A stretch of DNA of 36,927 nucleotides, the filler included, from Deltaproteobacteria bacterium (GTDB lineage Bacteria > JAUYMQ01), in NCBI GenBank assembly GCA_030698575.1. It is 7 parts of 7 records of this genome, joined end to end, with 100 filler letters (N's around TTAATTAATTAA, not from the genome) between each part and the next. Parts side by side here need not be neighbours in the genome. Positions count along the whole stretch, not along the records: positions 13,108 to 19,475 come from JAUYMQ010000012.1; 6 more parts are not named here. One strand, 5' to 3'. The stretch's first letter is position 1. The number at the start of each line of letters is the position of its first letter. The notes beneath the pieces were generated by a model. That model saw only the letters and a list, made by a program, of their open reading frames with translations. It did not search any database and was not told the DNA's origin. A program made the position numbers and the translations under genes. Positions 3,233 through 32,620 of this stretch are shown here, in pieces.

Positions 3233-3332
3233 NNNNNNNNNNNNNNNNNNNNNNNNNNNNNNNNNNNNNNNNNNNNTTAATTAATTAANNNNNNNNNNNN
3301 NNNNNNNNNNNNNNNNNNNNNNNNNNNNNNNN
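3233..3332. other. Artificial contig linker
   Basis: N-run, TTAATTAATTAA (stops in all six frames), N-run; 100 nt. Confidence 0.98.
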
Positions 3333-6271: not shown

Positions 6272-6371
6272 NNNNNNNNNNNNNNNNNNNNNNNNNNNNN
6301 NNNNNNNNNNNNNNNTTAATTAATTAANNNNNNNNNNNNNNNNNNNNNNNNNNNNNNNNNNNNNNNNNNNN
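6272..6371. other. Artificial contig linker
   Basis: N-run, TTAATTAATTAA, N-run. Confidence 0.98.
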
Positions 6372-7337: not shown

Positions 7338-7511
7338 GGGCCCTCTCCCTCTGGAGATTCGGACGGCCGGACAGCATCCGGCGGGCGGCGGCCGGCGATG
7401 TCCATAGCGAGATCGCCAGATTGCATGATTAGTTTAAAATCGCCGTGATACTATACTACAAACGGTGTAGGGTCAGATAGATCCTTCACCCCCTTTCCCA
7501 GGAGGCCGGAA

Positions 7512-8603
7512 ATGAAGAGATCATTCGGCTGGCTAGAGGGATGCATCACGATTGCGATCGCTCTTGGACTGGCCGGCGGCTGCGGACACCAGATGGCGGC
7601 GCCTTCCGGGGCAACCTTTCACGTCGCGGCCATCGGCGACTCGATAGCTTCCGGCCAGGGGGCCCCGGACAAGGATGCCTCAAAGTGGCCGCCCTGGGAC
7701 TGGATGCCGGAGTGGCAGGACGAGCGCTGCAACCGATCCATGCACGCCGGCACGTTCGACGCAGTCGAGCGAATACGCAATTCCCCACAGCCCAAGACGA
7801 TCGAGTTCCGCTCATTTGCCTGTTCAGGAGCGTCGATAGCGAAGGGCCTTCTCGGCCCCTACGACGGAGTGGCGCCGTTGTGGAAGCGCTGGCTTCGGCC
7901 GGACAGGTACAGAGAGCCGCTTGCCCCTCAGGTCGAAGAGGCGCTCAAATGGGCCAAAGAGCTGGATAACCAGCGGATCCCCACCGAGCCCTACGAGCCG
8001 CCGATCGATGTCCTGACCATTTCCATAGGGACCAATGACATTCTGGCGACACAGATTGTGGCCGCATGCATGCTGCCTGTTGTCGAGTGCAACATCGCGC
8101 GCCCCATCATCGAGCACGAACTTCTGTGTCTCGTCGGAAGCTACAAGAAGCTGCGCGAGGAGATCGACAAGGAGCTCGCCGGATACACGAAACACATCAT
8201 TGTGACGGGATACCCCGACCCGGCGAGGGACGGCGAGGGAGTGGCTTGCAATCATGCGCCCCCGCGATCCCAGGGCAAACCCGAACCTCTGGCGGGCATC
8301 TCGGCGGGCGATTCAGAGTGGATGTCCGGGGTGCTGAGAGACCTCAACGAGACTATCAGGACGGAGACTGAGGATCACGGCTGGACTTACCTGGACGTGA
8401 ACGAGGACGTGGCGGCGAACGGCGTCGTCGACGAAGGCTTTCCGAAGCACGGGTGGTGCAGCGATCAGAACTGGATCAACACCATCAACGACTCCATCCA
8501 CAAGCAAAGGCATTTTCGAGGCGGCGTCCATCCGAATGTCAGCGGCCACGATGTCTACGCCAGGAGGCTTCACCCTCTAATCGACGAGAGGCTCACGGAG
8601 TAA
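7512..8603 (+). CDS. SGNH/GDSL hydrolase, probable lipoprotein
   Basis: LAGGC lipobox-like sequence, GDSIASG, ACSGA, IGTND, HPN..GH; AGGAGG RBS. Confidence 0.85.
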   Translation: MKRSFGWLEGCITIAIALGLAGGCGHQMAAPSGATFHVAAIGDSIASGQGAPDKDASKWPPWDWMPEWQDERCNRSMHAGTFDAVERIRNSPQPKTIEFRSFACSGASIAKGLLGPYDGVAPLWKRWLRPDRYREPLAPQVEEALKWAKELDNQRIPTEPYEPPIDVLTISIGTNDILATQIVAACMLPVVECNIARPIIEHELLCLVGSYKKLREEIDKELAGYTKHIIVTGYPDPARDGEGVACNHAPPRSQGKPEPLAGISAGDSEWMSGVLRDLNETIRTETEDHGWTYLDVNEDVAANGVVDEGFPKHGWCSDQNWINTINDSIHKQRHFRGGVHPNVSGHDVYARRLHPLIDERLTE

Positions 8604-13007: not shown

Positions 13008-13107
13008 NNNNNNNNNNNNNNNNNNNNNNNNNNNNNNNNNNNNNNNNNNNNTTAATTAATTAANNNNNNNNNNNNNNNNNNNNNNNNNNNNNNNNNNNNN
13101 NNNNNNN
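13008..13107. other. Artificial contig linker
   Basis: N-run, TTAATTAATTAA, N-run. Confidence 0.98.
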
Positions 13108-13122
13108 AAAGATGAGTTTCAC
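13108..13122 (-). CDS. fmt: Probable first codons of methionyl-tRNA formyltransferase
   Basis: GTG AAA CTC ATC TTT (MKLIF) begins 21 nt after the def stop, matching the usual Fmt N-terminus and def-fmt gene order; only 5 codons are visible. Confidence 0.55.
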
Positions 13123-13143
13123 AGCTTCTGGGAACCGCGCGCG

Positions 13144-13578
13144 TCAGGCCGACTGACGCGCCCGCTTTTGCATCCTGGCGCGGATGCGGTTCTGCTTGAG
13201 GCGCGAAAGATAGTCGACGAAGACCTTCCCCTACAGATGATCCATTTCATGCTGAATGCATACGGCCTGCAGCTTTTCGGATTCGAATTCGAACCGCTTG
13301 CCGTCCAGGCCCACTGCGCGCACGTGTATCCACTCGGCGCGCTCGACAGCCTCATAGACCCCTGGGACAGATAGGCAGCCTTCTTCGCAATACTGGGATC
13401 CTTCGCTTGCCAGTATCTCCGGGTTGATCAGGACCAGCAGCGTATCGCGCGCTTCCGATGTGTCGATGATAATGACCTGTTTGTGCACGTCGACCTGTGT
13501 CGCCGCGAGCCCGACGCCGGGGGCTGCGTACATGGTCTCGGCCATGTCGCGCACCAGGGCGCGGATGTCTTCGGTAAC
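13144..13578 (-). pseudogene. def: Peptide deformylase lacking its N-terminus, with an in-frame TAG, fused to the giant ORF
   Basis: [39 protein letters not shown](13231-13233)-GKVFVDYLSRLKQNRIRARMQKRARQSA-TGA. Confidence 0.88.
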
Positions 13579-16500
13579 GCCCTTGCTTTCGGCGGGCGTG
13601 CGCATGGTGACGCCGGCGCGTTCGAGCCATCGGCGTACGGTCGTTTCGCCACGGTCCATCGACTGAGCGATCTGGGCAGCCGTCTCGCCTTCTTCATAGC
13701 GCTGCGCGGCGGCTTGGAGCGAGCCGATATACTCGACGATGTCGTCCTTCGTCGTTTGGCCCCTCAATTTGAGGAACTTGTCCAGACCGACGCTGGCGAT
13801 CTCGTCTTCCTTCACGCCCTGCGTGTTGCGCAGCGCGGCGAGCATCTGAGGGCCGGAGCCTTTTTCGGTCTTCAGGGATTCGGCGGCGCGGGTGAGGGCG
13901 GAGAAGAAAGGTGGGGACTGACGGGGGAGGGCGAAGCGTTCGCGACCGCCGCGCGAAGCGAGCGGCATCTCCGGTGTCGTTTCGCCGCGCAGATACGCTA
14001 CCCAGTCCATATCGAGGATGCGGCCAATGTCGACCGCCAGGATCGTCTCCCGGCCCGCCGCGCGCGCAGTGGCGACGCGATGTCCGCCCTCAAGCAATTC
14101 CCATCGGCCGCTGTCGCCGCGACGCACGAGTACGGGCGGCGGCGCGTTGCCGGTCGCCAGCATCTCGGAATATCGCCTGACTGCGGCTTGGCTGATCGAG
14201 CGCCGGGACAGATCGAGATCGGCCACCGGAACATCGGCGCGCGGGGCAGTCAGCGGATCGGCAAGGTCGAACAGTTCCGCGCGCCAATCTTCCTCCGTGG
14301 CGTCGCGGCCGTTTACTTCGCGATAGGCGCGCGCCGCCGGTTCGTGGCGGCTGATCTCATAGGCAAGATCGCTGCGGGTCTCGGCGGGGAGATCGTCATA
14401 TGGCGTGTCGGTTAGGGCGCGATCTGCTTCGCCGCGCTCGCCCCGCTGCGCAGCTTCTTCAGCATCTCGCGCGCTTCGGCCTGGGTCTCCGGCTCCTCGC
14501 CTCTCTGTTCCAGAGCCGCTAGGTGCGTCACGATCAGGCCTTCCAGGCTGTCTCGATCGGGCGCTTTGCCCAGCATGTTCCTCGACATTTGCTGTAGCGG
14601 GGTCATCGTAAACCTCCTTGAGGGCGTCGTGCTCGGCGTGGAACGCATCGAAGGCGGCGACAAGATCGCTCTTGATGCGGCTGTCCAGCCCAGGATTATG
14701 CTCTTCGAACAAGCCTGACAACGCCGACAGCGCCGACGTGAAACTTTGATTGTGCTCGCCCTCGTTCTCGTGCACGGCCTCATGGTAGAGCGTGTGCAGG
14801 ACGGATGCCGCCTTGGCGCTGGGCTTGGACAATCCGCCCGCGAACGGCCCGTAGAACGGGTTGATGAAGAAGCCCTTGAACGGCACCGAGACGTTCACAC
14901 CGGCGTAGCCCTTGTCCAGAGACACGCCTGCGGGACGTGCCTGCGGGCTGCCCTCGGCAAAGGCCAGGTAATCCGATCCTGGAATCTTGCCGAGCCCGTC
15001 GCGGAACGCAGTTGCCGCGGCGCCGAGCTGGTAGAAGAACTCGCGCAGCTTGGCTTCGGGCAAACCGGAGCGCTTCGCCGCATCGGCCACGATGTCCACA
15101 TTGAGGTTGTTGTGGAATACCGGCGGCAGGCCGCGCAGGCTCTCGTCCGGAACCTTGAAATCCTCGACCGTGTTTGGGTTCTCGAACTTGTCGAGCGTGC
15201 GGCCGTCGATATTGAGCGCGCCGTCCTTGACCTGAATGCGGTCGGCGATCTGGAACGCCAGACTGCTCCGTTTCGGCAAGGCATCGCTGAGATCGAGGGA
15301 GTCGAAATCCGCGCCTTCGGTCGTGGGGCGCATGGCCTGCAACCTGGTGAAGCCGGTGCTTGTCCCGCTCGCCGTCCGCGACCAGTTGATCAGGCGGAGA
15401 TAATGTTCCAGCGCGGCGGTATCCTCCTCGACCTTCTTCGACCAATCTTCGCGCTGGTTGTTGAAGGGATAGAAGGCGTGCTCCGCCGGCACCTTGGAGC
15501 GCACGTTGAGGAGGATGCGATAGGGGATCGGATCGAACTTCATGGGGGTGGCGCGGAAGCGGGTGTCGAACTGCCACAGGCCGGCGGAGAGAACCTGGTG
15601 GTCCTGCCAGCCGCCATCGGTCGGCGCGTCGCCGTAATAGATATCGATCTCGCCCCACGGGAACTCCGCGGTGGTGATCTTCGGCAGCCCCTTCAACTCG
15701 ATGTTGCGGCCGACCGGCAAGGTCATCGGCGTCTTCTCGCTGGCAGTCTTCACCGTGACGGTCACGTCGCCGATCAGCGGCTTGCGCAGGAAACCGAACG
15801 AGGTCGGGCTGCTCGGGACGTAAAGGTCCTTAATCTCGCCGCCGGCATCCTTGTATGTCTTCGGGAACGTGACCGTGACCGTGGTGCCGTTGGGCTCGCG
15901 CGTGGAGCTTTCTTTCAGGGTCGCCCGTCCCGCCATCAACTCCTTGCCGCTGGTGTCCAGATCGACCGCCACGCCGTCGCGCACGGTATGCAGCTTCAGC
16001 CCGTCGTTGCCGAAGATGAAGGCGAGCTTGGCGATGCCGAAGCCGCCCGAGGCCTGGTCCGGCGCAAGTCCCGCCTTGTCGGTTCCCGCAACGGTGAGGA
16101 ACGCATCCTTCACGGTCTGCGCCGTCATGCCGGCACCGTTGTCCGTCACGGTGATGGTGCGCTTCTCGGGCTCGTAGACGATGTCGATCCTGGGCTCGCC
16201 CTTGATCGCGCCCGCGAACTGCGCCGCCTTCACCCCGTCGAAGGCGTTCTGCACCAACTCCTTCACCGTCACGTCCGGCATGTCCGCGCCGTAGAGTTTC
16301 GCGCCCATGATCTTGACGATGCGCTCGAGATCGGCGCCGATGCCGACGGTCTGGTCCGGCCCTGGCTCGCGGGTGTCGCGCAGCTCGCGGCGCTCGCCGC
16401 CGAAGAAACGATCAAAGGCGGACTTGTCCTGGGTCGAGGGGAAGGGGCCGCGCGGGAGGCTGAACTTCGGCTTGGCGGTCGCCCCTTCAATGCGCGCCGC

Positions 16501-19475
16501 CTCGGCCTCGTAGGCTTCGTCGAAGCGAGCGGTCGCCTCATCGTACTCGCGCTTTGCCGCCAGGAACTCGTCGTCACCGATCTTCTTGGCGCGGTAGTCG
16601 TCTTGGGCCTTTGTGAACTTCCGTTGGGCGGCGTCGTGCGCGGCGCGCGCGGCTTCGTACTCGGCAGACGTTGCCGGTTCGTCCGCAGCCTTCGGCGCTT
16701 CTTTCGGCGTCCGGGGCGCATCGAACATGTCGGCCTGCTTGCGCGCCCCTGTATCGAACAGCCCTTCATCGGCCGCCTTCTGCTGGGCCTTGGGCTTGAT
16801 GCGACCCTCGCGCGCTTCGACGGCCTGCTGCACGGATTTCTCTGTACCGGGAATGACCTGCTGCTCGCGCGCGCCGTCGATGGTCTGGACGGTTTCGGTC
16901 GTGGGCTTGGCTTGTCCACGTTCCTGCTTCTGGAACTGGCCGACGTGGAACCCTACGGCCTTCTCTCCGCGCTGGAAGGCGGATGCCTGGGCACCCTGGC
17001 GGAACCGCGGCGGGATTTCCGTGCCCTCGGGAATGGAGCCCTCCAGCTCGGCGACACGACGATCGTAGCCGGCGAGGAACGCATCGCGCAGGAGCCGATT
17101 GAACGGCTTGCCGCTCGCCGTGCGCTGAGTCTCGACGGACGACTCGCGCTGGGCGCGAAGGTAGGAGATGAGGGCGTCGTCGCCCGCCACCTGACCGCCA
17201 GATGGCTGCGCGGCGGCGGATGTCTGATCTCCGGCAGCGTAGCGGGCTGCGTTCACCAGCGCCTTCTTGCTGTTCGCGAACCAGATCGTTCGGCCGGAAT
17301 CGGTAGACCCCTTCCGGAGAGCGTCGCCCATGGCCTGACGCACCCGCGGGCGCGTGACGCCGAACATCTCCTGCACGACGGGCGAGATGTACTCGAAGCG
17401 CGCGGATGGATGGAGGTCCAGGAGGCGGAGGTCTGCATCTGTCGGCTCTCCGCCGGCACGCAGGCGCGCAGCGATCTCGGCGACGCGGTTCTGTCGCTCT
17501 TCGGCGCGCGCAGCATTGTCAGCCACGTTGGTGAGGCGCTTGCGCGCACTGTCCGCGGCAGCCTCCTTTGTCGCCTCGTAGTTCCAGATCATCTTGCCGT
17601 CGGCGTCGGCGACCGCCCACTTGCCTTTGGCAAGGCCCTTGCCTTCGATGAAATGGGAGCCTTCGGGAAAACCGTCGAGCAGAGCGTCGTCAGAATCAGA
17701 AACCCCGGCTTCTGGGGCCGGGGCTTGGTCTGCGGCTGGCTGCTCGGCCTGCGTTATTTCTGGTTGTTGGCCAGCGCCTCCAGGTTCTTCGCCTGGCGAA
17801 GTCCCTCCTTCCTCTGCGCGCGCGTCAGTCCCGGCTGGCCCAAGGCGCGGCGGCGCCCTTCCTTCACCAGCGCGAGACGCTGGTCCTTCGTCAATCTCGA
17901 ACGGGACTTCCCACCTATCTCCACGGCCTTCCTCCTGGGCCTGGGCGACGCGCTCGTCGACCCACGCCATCTTACCACTTTCAACAACGTCCGTCACAGC
18001 TTCCTCGGCGGACACGCCCTCGCCCATGCGCGCAAGGGCCGCGTCGGCTTCCTCGGCCGTCAGGGTGATCTCCATCTCCTCGGCGTATGCGGCGATATCG
18101 GCCCGGGCGTCGGCTTGGCCGGAATCGCCTTCCTGGGCCTGGATTTCGCCCCGCCGGCGGTCGACCTCCGCCCGGTCGCGCTCGGAATAGACGCGCTCCC
18201 CCCTGGCCTGGCGCTCGATGAGGTCCAGAAACTCGTTGATGCCCTGCTCGGGCGACGCATCGGGGCGTTCCTGGGGGAGATATCCGGCTTCTTGGGCGAG
18301 CTCGCGCGCGCGGTCCAAGGTCAAGCCATTGGCGCGTACCAAGCGGCCATGGCCAGGGACGAAGACGCGGCCGATATCGAGAGTGCGCAATTCGCCGCCC
18401 TGGTCCCGGATGCCGCCCTGGGAGGCCAGGAACCGGAACAGGTCTTGCGGCGCCCGCATGCGCTGTTTCAGTCGGCGCTGCGGCTCCGGCTCTGCCTGTC
18501 CAGCAGGCCCCGGCGCGGCTGGCGTTTCGACATAGCCTCGAACATCTCGACCTGCGCCAGCCTCTTCTGCGCCCGCTCCCGGCTCGGATACGGCCCGCCC
18601 AGGTTGCGGCCCGACTCGCTCAGGACGTGAAAGCCGTCCTTGCGTTTCACGATCATCGATAGCTCCTTGCGAAATCTCCATCGCCCGGCCGATCGCTCGG
18701 GATTTCTCCTCCTGCGTAAGCTGCGCCCACGGCGCGACGCGGCCTGCGGTCTCGCGGATGATGTTGAGCCCGACCCCGGCGACGTCCGGCGCGCCATCGG
18801 CATCCTTGGGCAGCAGCGCGCGGAAGTGCTCGAAACTCGAGGAAGAAGGCGGGGCCGGTCGGGCAGCGACTGCCTCGACCGGCCCCTGGGCGGGAGGCTG
18901 CGCCTCTGCGCGAGGCAAGGCAGGAGCCTCGACCGCCGTCTCGTCCGGAACAACGGATACGTCCTGCGGGCTGACCAATACGGCACCATCCTCGGTCTCC
19001 AGGCGGGCATAGGTCTGGCCCTGGTGCTCCACCGTGCCGGCGAGAGTGCCGCGCACGATCTCGCCGGAGGGAAGGGTGGCGGTGACGGAGGGGGGGGCAT
19101 CTTTCGCCCGCTCCTGGTCGGCCACGATATCGGCCAGGGGGCTCTCCGTCGTGACCGGACGCGCTGACGCATCGGGATCCTGCCGCGCGGCCTCGGCGAT
19201 GGCGCGGCCCTCGGCGATATCGGGGGAGGCTGCCGGGGCTGAAACGGCGGGCGCGCTTAGCGCGCTCAGCGCGCTTTGAATGATCGCCTCGCCCTCGGCC
19301 TTCAGATCGGTGGGGATGGGAGAATCGATGTCGCCCTGTGTGATCTCCACGGCGACGGGGGGAGAAGTGGGATCCAGCGTGACCAGGACGGTGCCGGGCT
19401 CGGTCTGGACGGCTTCGGGGGCGGGCTGGGCGGGGTCGCCGGAATCGGGCGGGGGCGGGCTGAGGTCTGGGGTGG
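13231..19475 (-). CDS. Giant phage-type polyvalent protein (>2080 aa, 5' truncated): GHKL ATPase, zincin HExxH, ParB-like, HTH
   Basis: Frame is open to the contig end. GHKL motifs [47 protein letters not shown]...[30 protein letters not shown]; long Ala/Pro/Glu-rich linkers. Confidence 0.85.
14412..14606 (-). CDS. Overprinted small gene 3 (64 aa, +1 frame inside the giant ORF)
   Basis: AAGGAGGT, 5 nt, [69 protein letters not shown]-ending codons shift to this frame. Confidence 0.72.
14695..14721 (-). promoter_or_regulatory. Possible internal sigma70 promoter for nested gene 3
   Basis: TTGTCA (14721-14716), 15 nt, CATAAT (14700-14695); the spacer is short. Confidence 0.4.
17692..17726 (-). 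terminator. Intrinsic terminator after nested gene 2, inside the giant ORF
   Basis: Minus strand CCCCGGC-cccagaa-GCCGGGG followed by TTTCTGATTCT, about 30 nt after the TAA at 17754; the U-tract is modest. Confidence 0.55.
17754..17924 (-). CDS. Overprinted small gene 2 (56 aa, +1 frame inside the giant ORF)
   Basis: AGGAGG, 6 nt, [59 protein letters not shown], basic and helical; flanked by a promoter and a terminator. Confidence 0.65.
17969..17997 (-). promoter_or_regulatory. Internal extended -10 sigma70 promoter for nested gene 2
   Basis: GTGACG (17997-17992), 17 nt, TAAGAT (17974-17969) preceded by TGn; a local AT-rich patch in an otherwise GC-rich ORF. Confidence 0.55.
18468..18656 (-). 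CDS. Overprinted small gene 1 (62 aa, +1 frame inside the giant ORF)
   Basis: AAGGAG, 6 nt, [47 protein letters not shown]..., a beta-hairpin plus helix pattern. Confidence 0.78.
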
Positions 19476-19575
19476 NNNNNNNNNNNNNNNNNNNNNNNNN
19501 NNNNNNNNNNNNNNNNNNNTTAATTAATTAANNNNNNNNNNNNNNNNNNNNNNNNNNNNNNNNNNNNNNNNNNNN
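19476..19575. other. Artificial contig linker
   Basis: N-run, TTAATTAATTAA, N-run. Confidence 0.98.
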
Positions 19576-19937
19576 GGCTTGTAGTAGAACCCCTCCAGGT
19601 AGGCCAGCGAGACGAGGCGAACGAGATTCTGGCACCCCTTCTTGTTCATGGCGAGGAGCACCAGATGGTTCGTGTCGGCGTAGCTGGCCCTTGATTCCTT
19701 CTCGCGGCGATCGCCCGGCGCCACGTAGGTCTCGCACCCGAAGATGGGCTTCACCCCCGCCTTGCGGGCCTTCTCGTAGAACTCGACCGCCCCGAACATG
19801 TTGCCGTGGTCCGTCATGGCCACGGCCGGCATCTTGAATTCGCGCGCCTTCTCGACCAGGCGGTCGATCTTGATGGCGCCGTCGAGCAGCGAGTACTCGG
19901 TGTGCAGGTGAAGGTGGACGAACTCCGCGTGGGGCAT
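19576..19937 (-). CDS. dnaE: DNA polymerase III alpha subunit, N-terminal PHP domain (3' truncated)
   Basis: FVHLHLHTEYSLLDGA, AMTDHGNMFGA, KPIFGCETY, HLVLLA, EGFYYK. Confidence 0.95.
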
Positions 19938-20156
19938 GGGGTTCACCTTGCTCGAAACAGCCAAGAGGGCCTGGAAAAAACGAGGGACAGCGCGCCCGCC
20001 GGTGCGGCCCCCGGACAAAACGCGTTACGTCTCAATTACTTAGCAGTGATGTGTGACAAGTTGCGGTAACAAGGCCGGGCCGGGAGCGGAGATGATCTGC
20101 CCCCCAGCCATCGCTACCACGGGCGGGCGGGCTTTGACAAGGACATTCCTCCCCGC

Positions 20157-25470: not shown

Positions 25471-25570
25471 NNNNNNNNNNNNNNNNNNNNNNNNNNNNNN
25501 NNNNNNNNNNNNNNTTAATTAATTAANNNNNNNNNNNNNNNNNNNNNNNNNNNNNNNNNNNNNNNNNNNN
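25471..25570. other. Artificial contig linker
   Basis: N-run, TTAATTAATTAA, N-run. Confidence 0.98.
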
Positions 25571-32520: not shown

Positions 32521-32620
32521 NNNNNNNNNNNNNNNNNNNNNNNNNNNNNNNNNNNNNNNNNNNNTTAATTAATTAANNNNNNNNNNNNNNNNNNNNNNNN
32601 NNNNNNNNNNNNNNNNNNNN
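32521..32620. other. Artificial contig linker
   Basis: N-run, TTAATTAATTAA, N-run. Confidence 0.98.

Follow-up and report, generated by a model that had tools for sequence, protein, structure and literature searches.

The DNA analysed here (the window, 36,927 nt in all) consists of several contigs chained by artificial N-run spacers, and the locus of interest is a 6368-nt contig bounded at its lower end by a spacer at 13008-13107 (an N-run, TTAATTAATTAA and a second N-run) and at its upper end by a spacer at 19476-19575. A giant gene is the sole gene present between these spacers; it therefore comes without gene context, and its neighbours in the window are uninformative. Its open frame runs along the minus strand (13231-19475), free of stop codons to the contig edge, and amounts to 2039 codons when counted from the first possible start, a GTG at 19350 (13231-19350). 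Since the frame is still open at 19475, the N-terminus is missing and the gene is 5'-truncated. Domain searches, with all coordinates on the minus strand, placed a GHKL-type HATPase domain at residues 1027-1164 (15859-16272; PF13589, E 2e-6; PF02518, E 6.8e-6), with the invariant columns present in the homolog alignment A1, followed by a zincin-like metallopeptidase region with an HExxH...H motif at residues of about 1515-1596 (14563-14808), in which H1523, E1524, H1527 and H1533 are unchanged across 20 homologs and the match to Pfam WLM falls short of the cut-off (E 0.014). Further downstream lie a stretch with a weak ParB-like match (residues 1739-1780; 14011-14136; phrog_723, E 0.012), a helix-turn-helix resembling sigma-70 region 4 (residues 1880-1912; 13615-13713) and, at the C-terminus, a peptide deformylase domain (residues 1925-2039; 13234-13578; PF01327, E 4e-36; phrog_2890), which stops directly after its HExxH-type motif.

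This combination matches the architecture of the polyvalent proteins that phages and conjugative elements encode, described in the main text of the original report as carrying many conflict-type domains with a zincin-like metallopeptidase as hub, a peptidase proposed there to process the polypeptide into units (Iyer, Burroughs, Anand, de Souza and Aravind 2017, PMC5512222). The giant protein has several unrelated conflict-type domains (HATPase, zincin-like, helix-turn-helix and deformylase, the ParB-like one being weak), an HExxH domain with invariant residues, and homologs of 1598-3368 aa that carry LPD and ART-PolyVal Pfam domains (PF18858, PF18857, PF18834 or PF18760 in 11 of the 21 homologs listed). 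The words 'HATPase', 'GHKL' and 'deformylase' do not occur in the main text of PMC5512222. By homology, the giant frame is a 5'-truncated gene for a polyvalent protein of the phage or mobile-element type; as there is no other gene on the contig, the label 'phage-type' refers to this homology of the giant protein. When the whole giant protein was searched against viral contigs, its deformylase domain alone was matched (3 loci). A 650-aa core matched none of 50,697 phage records (E 1e-8) and none of 72,556 plasmids (E 1e-5), with 7 short, weak matches in the phage records at a looser E of 1e-3.

Three small ORFs had been proposed by the initial annotation to lie inside this gene, on the same strand and in its +1 frame, each preceded at 5-6 nt by a strong Shine-Dalgarno (SD) sequence. 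We confirmed both points: all three are on the minus strand, in +1 relative to 13231-19350, and the motifs and spacers are as described. ORF1 (18468-18656; 62 codons and TGA) starts with the ATG at 18656, 6 nt after AAGGAG (18663-18668); ORF2 (17754-17924; 56 codons and TAA) starts at 17924 with GTG, not ATG, 6 nt after AGGAGG (17931-17936); ORF3 (14412-14606; 64 codons and TAA) starts with the ATG at 14606, 5 nt after AAGGAGGT (14612-14619). A shift in the composition of the giant frame over each ORF had also been noted and was reproduced, GC3 dropping from roughly 0.8-0.9 to 0.42-0.52 and G+C at position 1, which is the third position of the +1 frame, climbing to 0.84-0.92. Windows of 150 nt that combine GC3 below 0.60 with GC1 above 0.80 were absent from the 589 taken from 14 Pfam-supported control genes and made up 11 of the 200 in the giant ORF, every one of them at the three small ORFs. 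Similarly, in a scan of codon-usage log-odds the +1 frame outscored frame 0 in strong runs at 18690-18466, 17925-17656 and 14610-14401 and otherwise in a single minor blip (13425-13351), the switch from the giant frame to +1 coinciding with each SD and start.

Other signals were weaker. An SD with a start codon and an ORF of at least 50 codons occurred four times in the +1 and +2 frames of the giant gene, compared to 1.30 ± 1.10 times in 1000 synonymous shuffles, 38 of which reached four; the enrichment over codon-shuffled controls is thus present but modest, and the fourth occurrence, at 19100, appears spurious. Promoter-like sequences reported upstream of two of the ORFs, and a terminator reported at one, were not recovered: a consensus scan of 13108-19475 showed, on the minus strand, no promoter-like site near the ORFs and no terminator-like site anywhere, and the sole minus-strand promoter-like site (13493-13466) is unrelated to the ORFs and not above shuffles. 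Contigs from groundwater metagenome runs of one study, one of which may be the source sample, repeat ORF1 and ORF3 without indels, and 17783-18001, which covers most of ORF2, is not bridged by long metagenome pieces among those listed. The sequencing runs listed with this sequence are DNA runs, with no RNA run among them.

When the three peptides were compared to 92 loci by tblastn, as had been suggested, ORF1 gave a match, to an Aeromonas phage, and ORF2 and ORF3 gave none. The ORF1 homolog in Aeromonas phage 1233 (OR359403.1) is free-standing, unannotated in the record and 65% identical over 40 aa (E 3e-10); five further small homologs of 44-68 aa are 69-77% identical (E 1e-12 to 8e-8). Residues 1-44 of ORF1 correspond to a phage family of about 44 aa, with M1 aligned to the family start and all 18 of the 18 invariant columns of alignment A3 retained. 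Unlike the free-standing members, ORF1 lies within a giant gene in a different frame, and it ends in a tail of some 17 residues that the family does not have. AlphaFold2 (AF2) predicted three strands and a helix with a pLDDT of about 95 over residues 1-40, and a PDB fold search with this model returned 0 matches at E ≤ 0.001, the best being a YegP-like small protein (E 0.83). By alignment and model, ORF1 is an intact member of this three-strand-plus-helix phage family.

The family itself occurs in several arrangements. Among 262 confirmed stretches in viral contigs, the best 80 loci comprised 40 free-standing genes, 25 nested in +1 inside frames of at least 300 aa, 15 fused in frame and none nested in +2. 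Polyvalent-protein domains (InPase, LPD1, ddrB-ParB) were present in two of the four giant hosts examined, and in both of these the ORF1-family gene begins right at or after InPase. Elsewhere the module forms an N-terminal fusion with head-protease-like proteins and with a DNA ligase, and phrog_2859 and Klebsiella phage records named 'prohead core protein protease' contain it as a domain. Because it exists free, fused and nested, the ORF1 family offers a worked example of the interplay of gene fusion and overprinting.

For ORF3, family membership required a profile search rather than tblastn. An iterated HMM found exactly one match in each of 73 sources, namely the window and 72 of the 87 related loci (L006-L092), all on the sense strand, and the family thus delineated consists of proteins of about 65-75 aa encoded in +1 directly behind the zincin peptidase domain. 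All 73 matches lie entirely within an open frame of 419-4737 aa and in its +1 frame, with 0 of 73 in +2; a stricter pass anchored on the motif likewise gave an ORF3-type ORF in +1 in 33 of 33 cases and none in +2. The members start about 136-199 nt past HExxH and have 57-101 codons; the start of ORF3 at 14606, 178 nt past HExxH, is inside this range. Many of the loci are mutually related, so that locus counts do not represent independent events. With the window left out of the profile, ORF3 alone was matched when the window was searched as 603 six-frame segments (E 0.0022, 14 bits), and as its identity to family members is 7-28%, its membership is specific yet weak by sequence alone. In the closest relative (L013; core 43% identical) the SD-ATG context is near-identical, the first residues are the same and the gene occupies the same site. 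In the window, the final helix of the zincin-like region overlaps the SD and start of ORF3, and the SD is spelled by conserved K-E-V codons of the giant frame.

Selection in both frames, a check called for by the initial annotation, could be compared in 66 pairs among 62 unique copies of the ORF3 family (nucleotide identity 70-97%; NG86). Median dN/dS was 0.34 in the +1 frame, 1.26 in the giant frame and 1.01 in the third frame, and the +1 value was below the giant-frame value in 61 of the 66 pairs (15 of the 18 independent ones). Differences per site at positions 1, 2 and 3 of the small ORF were 0.175, 0.157 and 0.270 in the same 66 pairs. The ORF3 family is under purifying selection in its nested state. 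Conservation of the signals, which had likewise been set as a check, was also found: of the 62 unique copies, 61 start with ATG and 50 have an SD core (compared to 9.2% of 2951 random positions), and in most members a +1 stop codon lies 0-5 codons ahead of the ATG. A library of 1.84 billion proteins held 57 cluster representatives of the family, most of 43-117 aa. In the AF2 model (pLDDT 71), ORF3 consists mainly of three helices, with a short fourth one, and a PDB fold search gave 0 matches at E ≤ 0.001. We judge ORF3 to be a real nested gene and a member of a conserved small-protein family, and ORF1 and ORF3 alike are predicted to encode conserved small proteins that the models show as foldable.

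Nine non-truncated related loci were without a detectable member of the ORF3 family. Four of them (L034, L035, L052, L060), and probably L011, have a +1 ORF at the site; in L009 and L031 the giant frame terminates there, and L008 and L010 had no anchoring match. A second nested +1 family, upstream in 36 of the related giant genes, displayed an even larger difference between frames (dN/dS 0.15 vs 1.74), and the remaining alternative-frame clusters in these relatives behaved as hitch-hikers by the same contrast. As frames lying over conserved domains hitch-hike, clustering nested ORFs by similarity only is misleading, and such clusters are informative only once the dN/dS contrast is included.

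ORF2 has the codon-usage switch at its start codon as its sole support. It had no Pfam or PHROG match and no word-sharing candidate, and the syntenic +1 ORF in L016 did not align with it. The proposal that the linkers double as small genes missed by annotation is supported for ORF1 and ORF3, which pass the refutation checks set with it, and ORF2 is a candidate by its coding signature. As the +1 signature extends about 18 codons beyond the ORF2 stop, ORF2 may be the remnant of a truncated gene or a side product of the linker sequence; it is probably a third case, or a recently truncated one.

A general version of this doubt is that all three +1 ORFs are non-functional, either by-products of linker composition or decaying relics of genes swallowed by fusion. 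Codons for G, R, A, E and P would yield SD-like strings and open +1 frames, the linkers of L013 are low in GC3 too, and the modest excess over shuffles, the homolog-less ORF2 and the signature beyond its stop all agree with such an origin. Composition cannot, however, explain the 65-77% identity of ORF1 to free-standing phage proteins with every invariant residue kept, nor the low +1 dN/dS among nested copies of the ORF3 family, in which starts and SDs are conserved and from which the control alternative-frame clusters differ in dN/dS pattern. We consider this explanation unlikely.

Mobile cassettes provide a second alternative, in which the nested ORFs would be selfish elements inserted out of frame and the host frame would be kept open to avoid harm. 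A precedent is the 'ShiLan domain', reported as an out-of-frame HNH homing endonuclease hidden as a mobile insertion in an actinophage DNA methylase (Arsenault, Gosselin and Gogarten 2025, PMC11855218), which as described there shares with our ORFs the position in another frame of a phage gene, the stop-free host frame across the insert and the failure of annotation to detect it. The varied contexts of the ORF1 family (free, fused, and nested behind different domains) would also fit. However, ShiLan is a homing endonuclease, and ORF1-ORF3 are small and non-enzymatic-looking: they have no nuclease or mobility domain and no Pfam match, their PHROG matches are to families of unknown function only, and the predicted folds, a 44-aa unit of three strands and a helix for ORF1 and a small protein of three main helices for ORF3, are not those of an HNH or other homing nuclease. 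Moreover, the ORF3 family sits at a single, vertically inherited post-zincin site in 73 sources under purifying selection, and this fixed site and its divergence alongside the host gene are the opposite of what a sporadic, recently homing element would display. A cassette origin is therefore very unlikely.

Programmed frameshifting might instead join the small ORFs to the giant frame, either by a start at the internal ATG and a later -1 slip or by entry into +1. SD-like sequences within genes can promote frameshifting, as in prfB and dnaX, and a fused product would be sensible given that the ORF1 module is an in-frame N-terminal or internal domain in 15 of the best 80 loci. Against this, none of the three window ORFs has a canonical X_XXY_YYZ heptamer in its own frame, and just 10 of the 62 unique ORF3-family copies have one, at non-conserved places. 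The spacing from SD to start is canonical for initiation, and the +1 stop just before the ATG in most ORF3-family members leaves hardly any room for +1 entry. We regard a frameshift as highly improbable.

The remaining question was whether the giant frame is one gene at all. Across the 62 unique ORF3-family copies the giant frame is free of stop codons in all 62, compared to 1.1 expected if the small protein is kept and its codons are drawn anew, and it runs on for hundreds to thousands of codons. The giant frame is held stop-free across nested genes by selection. In the window, at 65% G+C, the overlaps would often be open by chance (P 0.20, 0.25 and 0.18; joint 0.009), so that selection for openness is demonstrated in the relatives and not in this copy. 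These individual probabilities, together with a possible frame-0 ATG 9 nt past the ORF1 stop, are what would speak for seven ordinary same-strand genes (four large and three small) with frame 0 stop-free by G+C-rich chance, a reading that we can hardly credit, given the low joint probability, the need for the four large segments to share one frame as well (1/27), the lack of any frame-0 stop at the large-segment ends, through which ribosomes must read, the absence of a frame-0 ATG, GTG or TTG between the ORF3 stop and the next conserved segment, and the openness of the giant frame in relatives at 26-60% G+C.

Genes embedded in genes are known from phages: Rz1 of phage lambda lies within Rz in the +1 frame, and the two products cooperate; in phiX174, B is embedded in A and E in D. 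The arrangement described here is alike in that a small ORF with its own ribosome-binding site and start is fully contained, on the same strand and in +1, in a larger one. It differs in its host, a polyvalent gene of several kilobases that houses several small genes, every one of them within a linker between domains, and in that the constraint falls on the nested frame, with the host frame just kept open. A spanin (Rz1-type lipoprotein) identity was ruled out, as the translations of ORF1-ORF3 contain no cysteine and hence no lipobox. In the main text of PMC5512222, 'overlap', 'frameshift' and 'linker' do not occur, and 'embedded' and 'reading frame' are each used once, on other matters, so that nested genes are not described in that main text. 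Our literature searches found no report of internally initiated partner proteins for polyvalent proteins.

Overall, we consider it probable that this is a polyvalent gene with dual-coding linkers and internally initiated partner proteins. In the giant frame, the three linkers would stay open and form a disordered, G/R/A/E/P-rich tether, and the same DNA read one base downstream would be a complete small gene with its own SD and start. The small proteins would be made by independent internal initiation on the giant-gene mRNA, and their position and fusions suggest that they may act as partners of the giant protein. The ORF3 family, invariably found behind the HATPase-zincin module and linked to it, may act on that module as a regulator, inhibitor or chaperone, and the ORF1 family resembles a portable adaptor. 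The small proteins also lie next to enzymatic domains, as a toxin-antitoxin or effector-immunity partner would, with no match to a Pfam or PHROG family that points to such a role. For ORF1, the small gene may be the older reading, with the giant frame having grown across it by fusing the flanking segments.

A wider and more tentative proposal, which we hold to be possible, is that polyvalent genes are systematically dual-coding, their linkers serving as reserved +1 slots for partners, and that they grow by reading through and overprinting small genes rather than deleting them. If so, one mRNA would yield a giant virion effector together with small regulators, chaperones or adaptors in a fixed order. 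Phage genes within genes have been known as isolated cases, and the arrangement here is regular, with three nested families. In the overlaps, selection constrains the sequence of the small protein and, for the giant frame, preserves openness only, so the 'linkers' in polyvalent proteins cannot be treated as unconstrained. Because gene callers forbid such overlaps, a class of conserved phage proteins is under-counted. Giant multi-effector proteins may thus carry built-in partners, and these would be a concrete starting point for understanding their folding, silencing, packaging or processing.

The window is an artificial chain of at least seven contigs and no single genome piece, because six pairs of 44-nt N-runs, each flanking a TTAATTAATTAA spacer, interrupt its 36.9 kb (spacers with their N-runs at 3233-3332, 6272-6371, 13008-13107, 19476-19575, 25471-25570 and 32521-32620). 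ORFs that enter the spacers, such as a 164-aa PHP-domain ORF at 19524-20018, are artefacts of the joins. The three small ORFs studied here sit on a 6368-nt contig (13108-19475) that is filled almost completely by one minus-strand open frame of 2039 codons, with its stop at 13231 and its first possible start, a GTG, at 19350. This frame remains open to the contig end, so the N-terminus of the giant protein is missing. The other window genes (adenylate cyclase, polyphosphate kinase, glycosyltransferases and others) give it no context since they are all on different contigs. The contig sequence was present in groundwater metagenome runs, all from one study.

Pfam searches of the giant protein identified a GHKL-type HATPase (residues 1027-1164), a WLM-like zincin region, weakly matched, that holds an HExxH...H motif (residues 1515-1596), an HTH (residues 1880-1912) and, behind the HTH, a C-terminal peptide deformylase domain (residues 1925-2039; window 13234-13578, minus strand; E 4e-36), while a ParB-like stretch was a weak match to PHROGs. 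The deformylase domain lacks approximately the first 21 profile positions and terminates directly past its HExxH-type metal motif; its fusion junction was crossed by one contig of sequencing run X1 with 0 differences. The 21 homologs listed (1598-3368 aa) have only a HATPase-zincin core of ~630 aa in common, with a best identity of 42%, and 11 of them carry domains named for large polyvalent proteins (PF18858, PF18857, PF18834, PF18760). Searches with the core against 50,697 phage records (1e-8) and 72,556 plasmids (1e-5) gave no match, and its relatives were metagenomic, with 210 loci confirmed in metagenome contigs and 7 in genome contigs. Eighty of the former and all 7 of the latter formed our set of related loci (L006-L092); many are akin to one another, so locus counts are not counts of independent events.

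We confirmed that ORF1 (18468-18656), ORF2 (17754-17924) and ORF3 (14412-14606) lie on the minus strand in the +1 frame of the giant gene, with the Shine-Dalgarno (SD) sequences and spacings described in the initial annotation; the start codon of ORF2 is GTG. Giant-frame GC3 fell (to 0.42-0.52) while giant position 1 climbed (to 0.84-0.92) at these three ORFs only, and windows of this type numbered 11/200 in the giant ORF compared to 0/589 in 14 control genes. Codon-usage log-odds switched from frame 0 (the giant frame) to +1 at the SD or start of ORF1 (18690), ORF2 (17925) and ORF3 (14610), and returned to frame 0 near 18466, 17656 and 14401. ORFs of at least 50 codons with SD and start were more frequent than in synonymous shuffles (4 compared to 1.30 +/- 1.10 expected), a count attained by 38/1000 shuffles. 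The promoter-like sites claimed upstream of two ORFs and the single terminator were not reproduced by a promoter and terminator scan.

Among the three, ORF2 alone may be a non-functional by-product or relic. As internal evidence, its codon-usage switch falls within ~15 nt of the GTG and its summed codon-usage score was +38 in its own frame versus -38 in the giant frame, and no homologs were found in Pfam, in PHROGs, by tblastn against 92 loci or by a word-sharing candidate search. The +1-type codon usage extends ~18 codons beyond the TAA (17753-17700, minus strand); ORF2 may once have been longer, and this signature fits a truncated older gene equally well as a live gene. A related locus, L016, carries a 50-codon +1 ORF with a GC3 dip (7503-7655) at the site syntenic to ORF2 (window ~17900), with no alignable similarity to ORF2 itself. 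At this site the giant frames of L016 and the window have a short acidic-aromatic motif in common (E-V/I-P-F-E), and this motif alone is enough to make the +1 residues similar.

At the site homologous to ORF3, the closest relative (L013; core 43% identical, G+C 60%) has a near-identical SD-ATG context and a 68-codon +1 ORF with identical first residues, across which its frame 0 is open and of low complexity. All 33 loci that could be anchored by an HExxH motif in one open frame carried an ATG-started +1 ORF of at least 40 codons, beginning 31-199 nt past the motif (136-199 nt in 30 of them), and at none of the 33 sites was the longer ORF in +2. Homologs in +1 were recovered with an iterated ORF3-type peptide profile, which matched 72 of the 87 related loci as well as the window, at exactly one place in each of these 73 sources, and had no match in five unrelated loci (L001-L005). 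Every match was the +1 frame of a 419-4737-codon open frame that contained it completely; 72/73 started with ATG, and most had a +1-frame stop 0-5 codons 5' of the start. The SD was likewise conserved, its core lying at -16 to -4 in 50 of 62 unique copies compared to 9.2% of random positions. With the window left out of the profile, ORF3 was the sole match among 603 six-frame window segments (E 0.0022), a weak but specific match at a syntenic site. In a library of 1.84 billion proteins the family had 57 representatives at E <= 1e-3, 49 of them 43-117 aa long and 8 longer, and the predicted structure of ORF3 consists of three main helices plus a fourth, short one (pLDDT 71).

Among the 15 loci without a match, 6 are cut by a contig end, the giant frame terminates at the equivalent site in L009 and L031, and L008 and L010 had no anchoring match. 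In L034, L035, L052, L060 and probably L011 the site holds a +1 ORF that is diverged or of another type. The nested slot behind the zincin motif seems, from these comparisons, more conserved than its occupant. The +1 ORFs of L034, L035, L052 and L060 are 59-77 codons long and lie just past the motif, those of L052 and L060 being alike. The closest textbook cases of such nesting are Rz1 in Rz and the phiX174 overlaps. The nearest published case found is an HNH concealed out of frame within the methylase of a phage (PMC11855218); selfish HNH-type insertion would agree with the geometry of the nested ORFs, but not with their content or with their fixed position.

Differences per site at small-ORF positions 1, 2 and 3 were 0.175, 0.157 and 0.270 across the 62 unique ORF3-family copies, with the fastest change at the third position of +1 and the slowest at that of the giant frame. 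Purifying selection in +1 was indicated by a median dN/dS of 0.34, compared to 1.26 for the giant frame and 1.01 for the frame that remains (NG86, a pairwise estimate that treats overlapping frames as if independent), with the +1 value lower in 61/66 pairs and 15/18 independent pairs. It is unlikely that these are separate genes across which frame 0 reads through by chance: in the window, the joint chance of openness was 0.009, large segments are not ended by any frame-0 stop and no frame-0 start was found 3' of ORF3. Decisive was the openness in low-G+C relatives, where the giant frame was open across 62/62 unique copies compared to 1.1 expected (mean probability 0.018) when codons for the same small proteins were redrawn from each giant gene's own usage. 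Given the dN/dS contrast and this openness, both frames are under selection in the ORF3-family overlap, +1 for protein and frame 0 for openness. Joining of the small ORFs to the giant frame by frameshifting is opposed by the lack of slippery heptamers in the window ORFs and by the +1 stops just 5' of most family ATGs.

We also clustered all nested alternative-frame ORFs of the 73 giant frames by similarity and contrasted dN/dS. This yielded many seemingly conserved clusters, mostly hitch-hiking on conserved domains, and in two large clusters only was constraint much stronger on the nested frame than on the giant one. One was the ORF3 family (0.31 nested, 1.43 giant, 47/51 pairs). The other was a second SD-led +1 family of ~57 aa (0.15 compared to 1.74, 23/25 pairs; for example L044 5772-5945), located 2.3-3.6 kb upstream of the zincin-associated family, whose profile matched 36 loci and had no match in the window. 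Two small ORF3-family sub-clusters also leaned toward nested-frame constraint; in the remaining 16 clusters tested, the giant frame was more constrained in 14 and the frames were about equal in 2. Another linker of L013 (3696-3838) has a 45-codon helical-looking +1 ORF with a GC3 dip and a weak SD.

For ORF1, tblastn identified a 65%-identical, free-standing unannotated ORF in Aeromonas phage 1233 and weaker matches within proteins of Klebsiella phages that bear the annotation prohead core protein/protease or coat protein; ORF1 also matched phrog_2859 (E 1.7e-4). Five free-standing homologs (44-68 aa) were 69-77% identical (E 1e-12 to 8e-8). The alignment to the family begins at the first residue and all 18 invariant columns are kept, but ORF1 has an additional 17-residue tail compared to the ~44-aa phage family. 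Residues 1-40 were modelled confidently (pLDDT ~95) as three strands and a helix, the tail not confidently. We confirmed 262 family stretches in viral contigs. In the best 80 loci, the family was free-standing in 40, nested as +1 in open frames of at least 300 codons in 25 (340-2694 codons, 23 above 1000), joined in its own frame to a larger ORF in 15 and nested as +2 in none. All 25 of these nested copies and all 73 ORF3-family copies are +1. The seven in-frame fusions examined comprised one DNA ligase, three matches to phrog_760 (two also matching DUF2213 and head-maturation-protease PHROGs) and three without any match. The 44-aa module is fused N-terminally in L104 (5001-7031), L124 (4989-6578) and L157 (4941-6383), with a LigD-like DNA ligase and DUF2213 or head-maturation-protease-like proteins as partners. 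Two of four giant hosts examined carry InPase and LPD1, one of them also ddrB-ParB and GGDEF, and in both the nested gene begins at or directly past InPase; the other two had one phosphoribosyltransferase match only and no match, respectively. That the family is so widely free-standing points, for ORF1, to an older small gene across which the giant frame grew.

Overall, at the level of sequence, we showed that selection differs in kind between the two reading frames and that the putative internal ribosome-binding sites are conserved. A literature search on polyvalent proteins with overlapping genes or overprinting did not find the arrangement reported, and the main text of the paper on polyvalent proteins is silent on nested or overlapping genes (PMC5512222). 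Ribosomes would initiate at the internal SD and start on the giant-gene mRNA to produce the small proteins, while the same DNA in the giant frame would encode a disordered tether between domains. We favour the ORF1 module as a portable adaptor for virion-packaged proteins, because it occurs free, nested, or fused N-terminally to head-protease-like proteins and a ligase. Since the ORF3 family goes with the HATPase-zincin module, the proposed processing peptidase of polyvalent proteins (PMC5512222), we favour a role for it in regulating, inhibiting or chaperoning this module.
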